Of a DNA stretch of 64,000 bases, positions 28,060-32,211 are shown piece by piece. The position numbers were made by a program, and so were the translations under genes. Source of the DNA: Girardia tigrina. Taxonomy: Eukaryota. Below the pieces are notes generated by a model, which saw only the letters and a program-made list of their open reading frames with translations, made no database searches and was not told where the DNA came from. Every line of letters begins with the position of its first letter. The first letter of the stretch is position 1. The stretch is taken from positions 28,402 through 92,401 of the forward strand of contig MQRK01214821.1 in NCBI GenBank assembly GCA_001938485.1, read 5' to 3'.

Positions 28060-28284
28060 CCTGACAATTAACTAACAACTTATACTGAGACACGTGCACC
28101 AAATATTTCTGCGAGCATAAGAAATGCTCTGTGGATTTAGGAATTTTAAAAAGGTCTTCTCTGTAGTCTCTGTCACATCCAAAGTTCAAAGTTTCCTCTC
28201 AAATAAATCGAAAACAGTTTGTGGATTGCAAGCTAATCTGGTATATAAATTTAATTGTCACAGGTGTCAAAACTCGTACATTGG
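28060..28284 (+). mobile_element. Penelope-like element, GIY-YIG endonuclease N-terminal part
   Basis: NLVYKFNCHRCQNSYIG, interrupted immediately after YIG. Confidence 0.8.
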
Positions 28285-28285
28285 A

Positions 28286-28563
28286 AATCCATTCACTAGG
28301 CTACGCTTTACAATCTGGGTGTGAAGGCAGTGGGAAGTAGTGACCTCGCTGTCGATGGTTTGATTGCATCTTAATGATCTGGGATGAATCAATCCCGGTG
28401 AAGGATGTCGTAATGACGTCGTTGCATCTTCGGACAGGCGGAACAAGGGTATGCTATTATCCCAACATTGGGGGAGTACCTGTTGAAAACCATCAGCGTC
28501 CCAGGCCTCCTATAAAGCCTCAGGCTTAATACTCGAAAGGAGTTGAGGTGCACATTGGGGATC
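28286..28563 (+). mobile_element. HDV-ribozyme-delimited unit (retrozyme-like), 3' part of type-1 monomer
   Basis: About 90% similar by eye to 46436-46707. Ends CACATT/GGGGATC, the start of the next ribozyme's P1. Confidence 0.7.
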
Positions 28564-31447
28564 TCAGTAGGACCAATAATAGAGTCTGTACGTCTTTCAA
28601 CACTGCGGTTGTTCTGCAGTTCATTGGCACCAGGGATACCTTCATGTTTTCGATGATCCTTTAATAAGTGTCGCTGTAACCATCCATCCGTTTTATACCT
28701 TTTATGACAATTTTCCATGGGGCATAGGAAAGGTTTGTCGCTTTCATCACGTCCCTGATTCATTGTGACCGTATGCACATTTTTTATGTGGCTTTTTAAT
28801 TCCTTCTGCTCTGCGAAATCTTTAAAGCAAGAAGGGAAAGTACAATGTACTCTCTTTTCCCGAGCCTGAATCATTTTCGGATACTCTCTTCTCTGCTCAA
28901 TCGCCTCCTCCAGTCTTTTGGACACAGCGCCCTTGATTAGGTGCTTGAGTATCTCGTCAGTGTCGCTTTGATTCCTCTCCTGCAAGCATCTTTCTAGTTC
29001 GGCAAAGTCTTCGGGGTCTTGGAACACCCAGGCCACATCGCGAGCGATGCGTTCTACCATCAGTTACTTTTTACAGCCGCTGATTTTTCGTTTGGATGAT
29101 GCTAATCCGGATCCTAGAACCCTTTTCACCACATCCACACCCCGTCGTCTATTGTACTCAAAGAACACAATGCGTCTTTTTGCTAGGACAGCGTGAGCCT
29201 CAGTAAGTCCGATTGACAGATTTTCATTACGAATTCTGTCAAATTTGATCTTACCAAGCGCTGTTCTTGTACAAGTATTATGAAAGGCTTGAAGCCGGGA
29301 GACTTCCTTTTCAGGTGTCACCCAACATTCGCTCCCATAATATACTGCCGGAAAAATGCTCGATTCGATTAGTCTTTTTTTTAAGCACCGTGGGAATCCT
29401 GCTGCTGCGAAGAGCTGGTGTCAGTTCGCGCAGTTTTCTCATCCCACAGCGCAAACGCTGACTTACATCCAGGATGCAGCTACCACATGTGGTCAATATA
29501 CTGCCGAGATAGCAGAACTCGCGCACCCATTCCACTTCCTTTTCACCACACAATATCTGCGATATTCCAAACCCCGAGTCATCAGTAAGGCACATGACTT
29601 TCGTCTTATTGGCACTTATAGTCAACCCAAAGTCTGAAAATATATTCCTGAGTATATCCAGCTTTTTGCAGGCCCGGTCGATATCAGAGTCGATGATACA
29701 TAGATCATCCGCGTATGCAAGTCTATTGACTTCAAACTTGTCACCGTTTTCATCGATCAGGGTAATTCCTCCCCCAAAACCTTTCAGTATTGCTGTTTTG
29801 ATTACATCATCGAAGACCAGGTTAAATAAACTTGGTCCCATCACACACCCCTTTCTCACCCCTCTACTCATAGGAAATTCACTCTCATCGACAGAGGCTA
29901 TGAAATCGTCATGAAAATCTCTAATGAGATTAACAATCCTTTCGGTTAAACCGAATCTCTTAAGGCATGCTCACAGAACTTCACGTGGTACGCTATCGAA
30001 TGCCTTTTCCAAATCAATGAAGATCACAAATACCTTCTGGTTTCTGTACCGATCTTCTTCCTGTATACGTCGAAGTATACTTATAACCTGCAAGGTCCCC
30101 TATTCGGCCTAAAACAAAATTGTCATTGGTCTAATCTCTCTTCCATCACCGGCATCATCCTATTTACGATTACTCGTGCAAAGACTTTACCAGTGACTTC
30201 TAAGAGAAAAATACCTCTGTAGTTATTTGGGTCTAATCTTGCCCCCTTCCCCTTAAAAAGGGTAACTACATTTGCGTTCCTCCAAGCCTTTGGGAACTGT
30301 TCATGGTCCCCGTTCCAGATCATCTCAAAGTCCTTCTGCAATTTCGAAGCGAGGGGTTGTCCACCCCACTTCAAAATTTCTGCAATCACACCATTAGAGC
30401 CGGGTGCCTTCCCATTACTCAATTGAGATATAGCTGCAGTTATCTCAGATACACTCGGTGGGATCGTGCTGATACAACTTGATGGTGGGAAGTGTGTCAT
30501 ATCAGCCCACTCGATGAGTTCTCTCGCTTCGAACAGTTTACGATAATGATTCGCCATTTGATCATTGGATACTGATGGAATTGGCGTGAAGAGTGTGTGT
30601 ATTCTTTCCTCTGGGTTTCCCATCATCCGCAACTCTAGGTACGGCGCGCTGTTCTTCTTGAAGTTGCCGGATATCAAGCTCTCCTCGATCACATTGCTGA
30701 GATCGATTATTCTTTCTCTCTTCCATTTCCGTATCTGTTCTTTTACCTTTTTGTTTGATGATTTCCATTTGTTTAGGTCCGCATCTTTTTGACTTCGCAC
30801 CCAGCTCTCTTTCCTGTGATTCCTCTCGTTTATGAGATGGTGCAATTCTGTTTCGTGACCAATTCTCAAGTTCCCTTTTAGAGTTGCGCCTTTTGCACGG
30901 CGGTATATCTCAAGTAATCCAGTGATAACTTTCTCAGAATTAACTCAACCGTTTTCTGCTCCCAAGATGTTTTGTTGAAGCTGGGACGTTAAGGATTCGC
31001 GATCTCGAAGAACGATATCTCTTTGTGTCCTACGCGGCATTTCGATTCTCGGCCTCTTTGGGGGACCCTCGGTCTTATACCCGTGTAATCATCATGATCA
31101 GATCCACCGTCGTATTGATGTTTACTCTGTACGTCTTTTACCCTGCCCATTCTTTTGGAATGAACAAGGAAGTAATCTAGTAGTTCCCTCTTTTTAGTTG
31201 CTGGATGATGCCAGCTCGTGCTTTTAACCAACGTGTGTTTAAAGAAGGAGTTAGCTACCTTCATACCTTTTTCCTCAGCAAGCAGTACCAACCTTTCTCC
31301 ATTGTCAGAAGTTTCGGCACTATGTGCGAACCTTCCAACGGCGGAAACCGGGTCTTCCATATCAAAATGGATGCGACAGTTGAAGTCACCTCCAACTATT
31401 AGCATATAGTCTGATTTATTAGCCTCGGATTCTGCTTTTCCAATCAC
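28557..31447 (-). mobile_element. RTE-like non-LTR retrotransposon (APE, RT, C2H2 fingers), truncated at both ends, several frameshifts
   Basis: APE motifs GGDFN, LDYFLV and GSDH. RT motifs KAPGSNG, RGIFLL, KAFDSV, GCVMGPSLFN, AYADD and FCYLGS. Fingers CTFPSC..HIKNVH and CPMENC..HLLKDH. Confidence 0.92.
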
Positions 31448-31774
31448 GTGGTGTCCCTGGGAAACTAGAGCATGCTCTAGGCTAAAGTGTCCGAAGCTTG
31501 CCTTGTTGGGGTGCTGACCAACCTAGTACGGGGGTCTGGGCCTGCAATCCACCCCTTTAAAAGGCATTGCTATCCGAGCGGGATGTGGAAATGTCTTCGG
31601 ACAACGCCCACTATCAGTTGAGGGGTGAAACCCGATGAAACACCGACTCGGCTCCTTTGGCTCTCGTGGGGCGTATGCGGATTACCGTGGGAGGGAGGCT
31701 TACATTGGGGATATAATGTCGCTCGCCTCCCCGTGGTGTATCCTGGGAACTAGAAAGAGGGTCTCCTCCCTTTC
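31445..31774 (+). ncRNA. Type-2 HDV-like ribozyme unit followed in tandem by the 5' part of a further HDV-like ribozyme
   Basis: 31450-31492 reads GGT-GTCCCT-GGG-AAA-[CTAGAGCATGCTCTAG]-GCTAAA-GTGTCC. 31708-31746 has P1 GGGATAT/GTATCCT, P3 GCC/GGT, L3 TCCCCGT and P1.1 GG. Confidence 0.75.
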
Positions 31775-32211
31775 AAAAATCCGGATAAGTGAGCATTCAC
31801 AATCAAGTCTATCGAGTAAGGTTCTTGACCATTGGTTATTTTGTAAGGATAGAACCTCATCCATTTAAAAAGATGAGTTTTCTGTTCTACAAAAGGGTTT
31901 TGATTCACATTACGAACGACAGTTTTGTGAATCTCTAATAATAAGACACTACAACCCATCAATTAACATTCAGAATGGGCAAAATAAGGTTATTTCAATA
32001 CTTAAAATTTTTAATTAAAATATTTTTAGCAATTATTACTCAATAATACTTTAATATATTATAATATTCATTTCAAATTTTACTATTTAAAATTAATACA
32101 CCTTTTAAAATCATATTATTTAATTAAAACAATTGAAATATTTAGATATTCAAATAATAAATTTCAAATATTGTTGATGATGATGTATGCAACATAGAAA
32201 CATGTTCAATA
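31772..32211 (+). mobile_element. Penelope GIY-YIG C-terminal part and 3' region
   Basis: RISEHSQSSLSSKVLDHWLFC...ERQFCESLIIRHYNPSINIQ. A hammerhead follows. Confidence 0.8.
32169..32211 (+). ncRNA. Degenerate Penelope minimal hammerhead ribozyme
   Basis: TATTG-tTGATGA-T-GATGT..ACAT-A-GAAA-CATG-TT-CAATA. The core C is mutated here but intact in the copy at 47117. Confidence 0.55.

Follow-up and report, generated by a model that had tools for sequence, protein, structure and literature searches.

Putative ribozyme-headed SINEs at a recurrent insertion site in the YIG codons of a Penelope-like element of Girardia tigrina

The locus

A 64,000-nt stretch of the genome of Girardia tigrina (the window), AT-rich eukaryotic DNA packed with transposons, contains two copies, A and B, of a Penelope-like endonuclease gene that is joined at its YIG codons to short units. 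The heads of these units resemble the hepatitis delta virus (HDV) ribozyme, and their tails resemble the 3' end of a long interspersed nuclear element (LINE). Public contigs carry the same junction in many variants, and the Penelope YIG site is a recurrent insertion hot spot. With moderate confidence, we favour the interpretation that the units are ribozyme-headed short interspersed nuclear elements (SINEs) of a sequence-preferring LINE, which arrived by serial target-primed insertions with a hot spot at the YIG codons of Penelope. The features of the two copies are listed below in window coordinates.

28133-28285, plus strand: 5'-truncated Penelope piece that reaches from the linker as far as the YIG codons and forms the target's left side (tblastn to residues 393-450 of the Penelope-like protein P0001)
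28286-28556, plus strand: unit 1, 5'-truncated, 271 nt, with a LINE-type tail ending CACAT(T) (identity to copy B, tail alignment)
28552-28562, plus strand: ACATTGGGGAT, left-hand member of an 11-bp direct repeat that is likely a target-site duplication
28563-31445, minus strand: internal LINE fragment, 2883 nt, with the end of an APE endonuclease, a reverse transcriptase (RT) and two C2H2 fingers
31446-31706, plus strand: unit 2, 261 nt, starting inside its own putative HDV-like ribozyme, with a structured tail
31702-31712, plus strand: right copy of the 11-bp direct repeat
31708-31775, plus strand: third unit type, a putative HDV-like head cut short on its 3' side (RF00094, helices, contig joints)
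31776-32018, plus strand: 3' part of the Penelope endonuclease with the stop codon, 18 nt lost at the junction (alignment to P0001)
46292-46702, plus strand: unit 1 of copy B, a near full-length monomer of 411 nt with a putative HDV-like ribozyme (46292-46375), body and LINE-type tail
46698-46966, plus strand: copy-B target (ACATTGGGGAGAC) and 3' part of the Penelope endonuclease

Copy A runs from Penelope up to the YIG codons (28285) through unit 1, the antisense LINE, unit 2 and the third head into Penelope minus 18 nt, and copy B passes from host sequence through unit 1 (46292-46702) into Penelope from the YIG codons onward. Both lie within a duplicated block (24483-26357/44442-46291, 31776-32829/46724-47777, 34302-35344/47771-48812), and copy B is without segment 26358-28285 of copy A. 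The exact motif ACATTGGGGA occurs three times in the window (28552, 31702 and 46698) against an expectation of 0.09, and at least three occurrences were reached in none of 100 shuffles.

As the first-pass annotation held, the Penelope endonuclease of copy A is broken at its YIG codons, its two parts (28133-28285 and 31776-32015) aligning to residues 393-450 and 457-536 of P0001. Likewise, unit 1 ends in CACATTGGGGATC, a 2.9-kb antisense LINE is present (2883 nt, 28563-31445), and in copy B unit 1 meets Penelope at 46698-46707. Penelope had also been described as resuming right after unit 2, where a third, different ribozyme-like head (31708-31775) in fact intervenes and 18 nt of Penelope are missing. 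The LINE frame reading EIPNVH is indeed open through the motif, but this peptide is absent from the LINE relatives P0017 and P0018, and the frame merely reads into unit 1. The copy-B unit, a near full-length monomer with a head of its own, is fuller than previously stated.

The antisense LINE fragment is split into five open reading frames (ORFs) and lacks both ends. Unit 1 of copy A is 92% identical to that of copy B. Independent insertion in A and B was considered and set aside, the unit-1 divergence of 6.6% against 3.7-4.4% in the right flanks not being significant (p 0.06-0.17); as a sequence, copy B fits an independent full-length insertion together with loss of 1.9 kb, divergence being no proof of independence. 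The left flanks (24483-26357 and 44442-46291) differ by 0.9% and the right flanks by about 4%, which suggests gene conversion or a recombinant duplicate, and both left flanks encode an identical 174-residue phosphatase-family ORF (PF22669). A second, internal ACATTGG lies at 28461-28474 in a small hairpin inside unit 1.

Recurrent junctions at the Penelope YIG codons

The proteins P0001-P0016 are Penelope-like proteins with a C-terminal endonuclease, and YIGETNRHL is present in 16 of the 16 relatives. RVT_1 and a C..C...YIG block were found in P0001 and P0015, i.e., an RT followed by a GIY-YIG domain with two cysteines inside the motif, as is characteristic of Penelope. Junctions were surveyed in the public contigs of four of 18 listed sequencing runs, aligned to window positions 26200-32000. 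X1 and X2 are DNA runs from one study, and X1 may be the window's own source; X3 and X5 are RNA runs in which the units are covered and whose contigs may hold DNA. What follows on joints, loose ends and linkers refers to the 15 of 525 joints, 24 of 4670 loose contig ends and 12 of 319 linker rows that were listed, on a ranking basis that is unclear. Short contigs dominate the junction data, and contig depth is not copy number.

The consensus of the loose ends behind 28285 starts with GAGACAAATCG in all four runs (236, 228, 38 and 1 contigs), with an agreement of about 0.57 over 30 letters in X1-X3, so that intact Penelope would read TACATTGGA and then GAGAC. The earlier reconstruction of uninterrupted Penelope as TACATTGGGGAGAC was not upheld: copy A has A at 28285, so that only 9 of 10 bases agree between target and motif. 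Other Penelope copies diverge at 28163 and 28175, where loose ends lie. A decayed minus-strand Penelope endonuclease at 43500-43889, about 40% identical to P0001, lies 300 nt from the end of a sister LINE and not at the LINE junction. Segment 26394-26975 is high-copy in the reads, and its part 26590-26776 has a weak match, in reverse orientation, to the Penelope 3' end (67-69%); it is likely an inverted Penelope-related piece.

Ten of the 15 listed joints connect Penelope 28276-28287 to the third head at 31701-31715, with 25 contigs behind them in X1, 23 in X2 and 3 in X3; the other five comprise one from the Penelope site to unit 1, two of uninterrupted Penelope and two local joints. No listed joint starts in Penelope 28140-28275. 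The summed depth of the ten rows is about 250 times (X1) and 360 times (X2) that of a unique contig, joints to 31708 making up 81% and 73% of it, respectively. Eight distinct linker strings occur in the 12 listed rows, mostly Penelope's next bases plus extra T's, as is expected for 5' junctions with non-templated bases. The junction class TACATT(G)-GGGATAT is present in X1 and X2. At the same site, unit-1 tails join Penelope in X3 and X5 and continue with CGGAGAGAC, not with GGGGA, so the bases after ACAT derive from the target. The recurrence of Penelope-YIG junctions, in many variants in X1 and X2 and also in X3 and X5, bears out the earlier proposal that a sequence preference draws the units into another retroelement.

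The same pattern might arise without active targeting, if one or a few chance insertions of a unit into Penelope were amplified with Penelope or by segmental duplication, the variety of junctions being due to later mutation. The great depth of Penelope in the runs (2.4-4.4 million summed, against 48-92 for the unique contig) suits this explanation, as do some linkers that differ only in the length of their T-run and the duplicated block formed by copies A and B. On the other hand, at least two unit families meet the same site, and with both ends; the joints use ten different from-to pairs; the targets in X3 and X5 carry a different codon (ATC); no other Penelope position is used among the listed joints; and unrelated LINE ends carry the same pattern (see below). 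Amplification of founders is considered quite unlikely.

A further concern is the assembly of copy A, in which the stack could have been formed in part through the repeated junction motif; the hot spot at the family level would still stand. Both LINE junctions fall within repeats of very high copy number, and the stack is bridged by none of the listed contigs; nor is there a long identical LINE contig among those listed (records filtered). In these filtered records, the LINE base of the window is carried by no contig at 11 (X1) and 16 (X2) of 36 listed LINE positions. However, one contig agrees with the left flank 26998-28191 without a single difference, and insertion is compatible with the 11-bp repeat, with the orientation of the units and with a LINE/unit-2 junction inside a ribozyme loop, so that we hold a partial mis-assembly to be very unlikely.

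Sequence collections were scanned as well. Patterns of Penelope plus head gave 0 matches, the LINE and Penelope protein scans gave no confirmed locus, and a unit-1 20-mer scan gave only two chance matches in unrelated sequence.

Ribozyme-like heads of the units

Unit 1 can form P1, P2, P3 and P1.1 together with P4 and GCUAA, the nested double pseudoknot of HDV-like ribozymes, with a G-U pair at +1. Its P1 has 6 bp when the downstream GGGGAT of copy A is used, and the 5' end of copy B itself pairs at 4 of 6 positions; P2 has 6 bp with three wobbles, P3 has 3 bp and P1.1 has 2 bp. Unit 2 keeps the 3' half of a unit-1-type ribozyme (L3 onward, the 3' strand of P1, P4, GCUAA and the 3' strand of P2), and the third head has a P1 of 7 bp, P3, L3, P1.1 and part of P4. 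P1.1 is CT/AG in unit 1 but CC/GG in the third head. The J4/2 strand with the catalytic C (GCUAA) lies at 46364 and 31481 and is not in the truncated third head. In a relaxed Rfam search, the best match near unit 2 was RF00094 at 31706-31766, with P1 from 31708 (24.4 bits, E 0.17; gathering threshold 50 bits). RF02682 reached 17.5 bits on the truncated head (threshold 44 bits), and copy B gave no HDV match in the relaxed search. The heads look like HDV-like ribozymes in these structural models, which predict cleavage at the base of P1. The contig joints peak at the predicted cut base, 31708, and the motif spans the predicted cleavage site, as had been claimed, the site being of HDV-like type. 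A search of viral and metagenome contigs with the ribozyme pattern gave 0 matches.

The units had been taken for retrozymes, which does not agree with their HDV-like heads and LINE-type tails. No hammerhead core (CTGANGA...GAAA) was found on either strand of the three unit stretches, nor any Rfam hammerhead match, and the units have no similarity to 31776-32830, the Penelope 3' flank (the full pseudo-long terminal repeat, pLTR, being undefined). There are no homologous tandem repeats or dimers of the units within the window. These results also count against an explanation in which the Penelope enzyme probably copies a retrozyme RNA of circular or multimeric form, with pairing across ACAUU/GGGGA and any abundant near-10-mer as target. 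In favour of this explanation, the position of the motif across the predicted cut and the GGGG of copy B where Penelope has GGAG can be adduced. We consider it unlikely, also on the evidence of tails and targets given below.

As to other types of head, a tRNA-type head was rejected because no tRNA was found in the units, and RNA polymerase III boxes can be fitted only if mismatches are allowed. The folding of whole units was discarded as a signal, being no better than that of shuffled sequences (z -0.84 and 0.23).

Tails and the likely partner LINE family

Two sister copies of the LINE lie elsewhere in the window.

42754-43191, plus strand: sister LINE 3' fragment, ending in 51 nt (43141-43191) that correspond to the unit-1 tail, with AGTGAGAC behind them
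938-3354, plus strand: second sister LINE with complete C-terminus; inferred 3' end at ACAT, then ATAAGAAAC (end placed partly by motif)

By Pfam, the LINE domains are APE, RVT_1 and C2H2 only; no RNase H domain was detected in the LINE fragment, and an Atlas look-up returned no clade name. From its motifs, the LINE is presumably RTE-like. Since P0017 and P0018 continue for about 100 residues with a third zinc finger, the LINE piece of copy A is incomplete at its 3' end.

Over its final 51 columns, the 43-kb LINE copy is identical to the unit-1 tail at 37 positions. When unit tails were scored against 1256 tiles of the window, the LINE end 43141-43191 was the best non-unit match to the unit-1 tail (37, against 30 and 27 for the next) and reciprocally so, and the copy-B tail scored 29 against this end, with 26 for the next tile. 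Units 1 and 2 and the 43-kb LINE end have in common an inner hairpin, an outer stem and a terminal ACAT, and the inner hairpin is kept with changed pairs in 4 of 4 tails. The tail is thus common to the partner LINE by sequence in unit 1 and by structure only in unit 2. In agreement with the earlier view, the unit is not the normal 3' end of the antisense LINE piece. A candidate origin of unit 1 from the LINE coding 3' end was rejected, as there is no DNA similarity to 2830-3420 on either strand. It is likely that the units, rather than being retrozymes, travel as SINE-type passengers with the APE/RT/zinc-finger LINE family present here.

Target pattern and probable target-site duplication

The LINE ends and the YIG codons fit one pattern: ACAT-AGTGAGAC (43188), ACAT-ATAAGAAAC (3351) and ACAT-TGGGGAGAC (46698). 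ACAT-N3-4-GARAC is present at two of two LINE ends but at only two of 674 other ACAT sites, neither of which has a tail before it. Because neither sister LINE copy sits in a Penelope, the target preference of the LINE would be loose. Background matches to the motif number about 30 per Mb in the window, about the copy density of Penelope; therefore, the hot spot could follow from the motif match alone.

A perfect 11-bp direct repeat, ACATTGGGGAT, flanks the antisense LINE plus unit 2, in agreement with the duplication of 10-11 nt implied by the contig joints. The repeat is likely a target-site duplication, with the repeated motif stemming from stacked insertions rather than from a circular-RNA junction. 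The earlier proposal, in which reverse transcription is primed across the ligation junction of an RNA in circular or multimeric form, is not needed: the bases after ACAT are those of the target, and the 11-bp repeat fits a duplication. The two sister LINEs may have decayed duplications at their 5' ends, which are too faint to serve as evidence.

For the circular-RNA explanation it may further be said that the best pairing of the 18-nt end preceding the LINE is with the IPKV codons of a sister LINE, that the read-through peptide resembles IPSVVLNFR of P0018 (3% of shuffles do as well), and that a purified Penelope-like protein cuts ATT in vitro; the same protein primes without homology to the cut DNA, which speaks against pairing (PMC11167929). 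The tails in X3 and X5, which keep target bases right after ACAT, the match of the unit tail to a LINE end and the target pattern common to LINE ends also argue against it.

A proposed scheme of serial insertion

In the favoured interpretation, the predicted ribozyme would cut a read-through transcript and thereby set the 5' end of the unit. The LINE protein would bind the tail and prime at the ACAT common to tail and target, and a second cut about 10 nt to the right would duplicate the site (about 10-11 nt). An earlier junction (ACAT-TG-GGGATAT) would remain target-like and take the next insertion, and later insertions would land on it because of this resemblance. The likely reason for the recurrence of units at the YIG codons is a preference of the LINE enzyme for the loose ACAT-N3-4-GARAC, which these codons match. 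Copy A would represent three events, in the order unit type 3, unit 1, and the antisense LINE with unit 2 between the 11-bp repeats, plus a deletion.

How the LINE piece was joined to unit 2 admits several answers. Second-strand priming on LINE RNA at partial complementarity is our tentative first choice, 5' transduction and capture at a break inside the head of unit 2 both seem doubtful, and a mis-assembled joint is improbable. Second-strand priming on LINE RNA would be a process of the twin-priming type. In its favour, at the IPKV codons the 18-nt end forms 12 Watson-Crick and two G-U pairs of 18, the best of about 2400 positions; this site is about 16 codons off the matching place, and the 18-nt stretch was chosen after the fact. 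The resemblance of the read-through peptide, also in its favour, is reached by 22% of shuffles for P0017 and by 10% when the 43-kb copy is compared. On the LINE side, microhomology is on this comparison partial at best. Against such priming, the motif lies 46-47 residues after the finger in the relatives and 30 here, and the LINE contigs, only about 85% alike, stop aligning at 28561 in all four runs.

Several points weigh against serial insertion by a LINE enzyme. The junction evidence covers only 15 joints out of 525 and 24 loose contig ends out of 4670. Overall, the window's five matches to ACAT-N3-4-GARAC do not exceed chance, five being reached in 8 of 100 shuffles, and the target motif rests on two LINE ends, of which the one at 3354 was located in part with the help of the motif. 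Because the left joints involve type-3 heads and the right joints type-1 tails, the length of the duplication has to be deduced across families. Copy B has G where Penelope has A, which read-through RNA explains equally well. Neither the unit-2 tail nor the 3354 LINE end aligns significantly in sequence to the other tails, and no LINE 5' end is present in the window to show a common ribozyme. At the Rfam gathering level nothing was found, RF00094 standing at 24.4 of 50 bits.

A bolder proposal is that the LINE endonuclease and zinc fingers are adapted to the conserved catalytic YIG codons of the dominant Penelope in the host and that the SINEs are dedicated hyperparasites, which disable the rival nuclease, borrow its transcription, release themselves and rebuild the target at every insertion; we regard this as possible but doubtful. 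If the favoured interpretation were true, one retrotransposon family would repeatedly disable another at its catalytic codons, and purifying selection on Penelope would keep the target available. Targeting by the LINE enzyme versus RNA-DNA pairing, and a hot spot by adaptation versus coincidence, are testable alternatives. An APE-type LINE with a usable sequence preference would also be indicated, and ribozyme-bearing repeats beside Penelope need not be retrozymes.

Comparison with known systems

The nearest parallels are L1Tc/NARTc and ingi/RIME at the RHS genes of trypanosomes, which likewise combine an APE-type LINE with C-terminal C2H2 fingers, a short non-autonomous partner and a 5' HDV-like ribozyme; these systems have a relative site specificity, with one or more elements stacked at one site of a multicopy gene (PMC5814959, PMC7563717). 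In contrast to the RHS system, the hot spot here consists of the catalytic codons of another transposon, and no RNase H was detected in the fragment. The short internally deleted elements (SIDEs) of R2/R1 are alike in being short, with an HDV-like ribozyme head and a LINE 3' end, and in having variable 5' junctions with non-templated bases at a fixed target, hybrid SIDEs having 14-bp duplications; they differ in their strict 28S ribosomal DNA target and their reported rarity in Drosophila (PMC3414825), whereas here the preference would be loose and the read depth of the units is very high. The combination of target-site duplication and variable 5' junctions, which marks SIDEs and stringent-type SINEs, is probably represented here by the 11-bp repeat and the eight linker strings.

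Metazoan non-LTR (long terminal repeat) retrozymes are similarly non-coding and a few hundred bases long, carry a self-cleaving motif and are found with Penelope-like elements (PMC7761336; bioRxiv 10.64898/2026.07.22.740005), but they are characterized by type I hammerheads, homologous tandem arrays and pLTR ancestry (bioRxiv 10.64898/2026.07.22.740005, PMC7229834), none of which was found in the window. Stringent-type SINE/LINE pairs likewise have a common structured 3' tail with changed pairs (PMC3747384), whereas the head of the present units is ribozyme-like and not derived from tRNA, 7SL or 5S. Target-specific non-LTR elements also insert into multicopy sequences, including transposons, sometimes in tandem (PMC4640811). 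HDV-like ribozymes are known in RTE elements and SINEs (PMC6765202, PMC7761336), and the accessible text of PMC8557442 does not mention HDV. No element aimed at the Penelope GIY-YIG motif or the YIG codons was met in the literature searched, a scope outside which most subscription journals and Repbase lie. Hot spots of ribozyme-headed SINEs and LINEs are already known, and the Penelope YIG codons as target are the new part.

Other elements in the window

A 1.47-kb insertion at 32830-34301, in copy A only, is flanked by ACTTATT (32823-32829 and 34302-34308). It has weakly inverted GGA...TCC ends and contains, on the minus strand, a USP8 fragment of 190 codons (USP8_dimer E 1.6e-9, rhodanese); it is possibly a Pack-type DNA transposon or a retrocopy. 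We take the ORFs at 14902-15963, 11488-13321, 19266-20295, 35453-38212 and 51149-51979, by their looks, to belong to mariner, hAT-type, tyrosine-recombinase and Ty3/Gypsy elements. Segments 22146-23448 and 39391-40690 form a further duplicate with 98.8% identity, and a 15-nt tandem array occupies 41588-41695.

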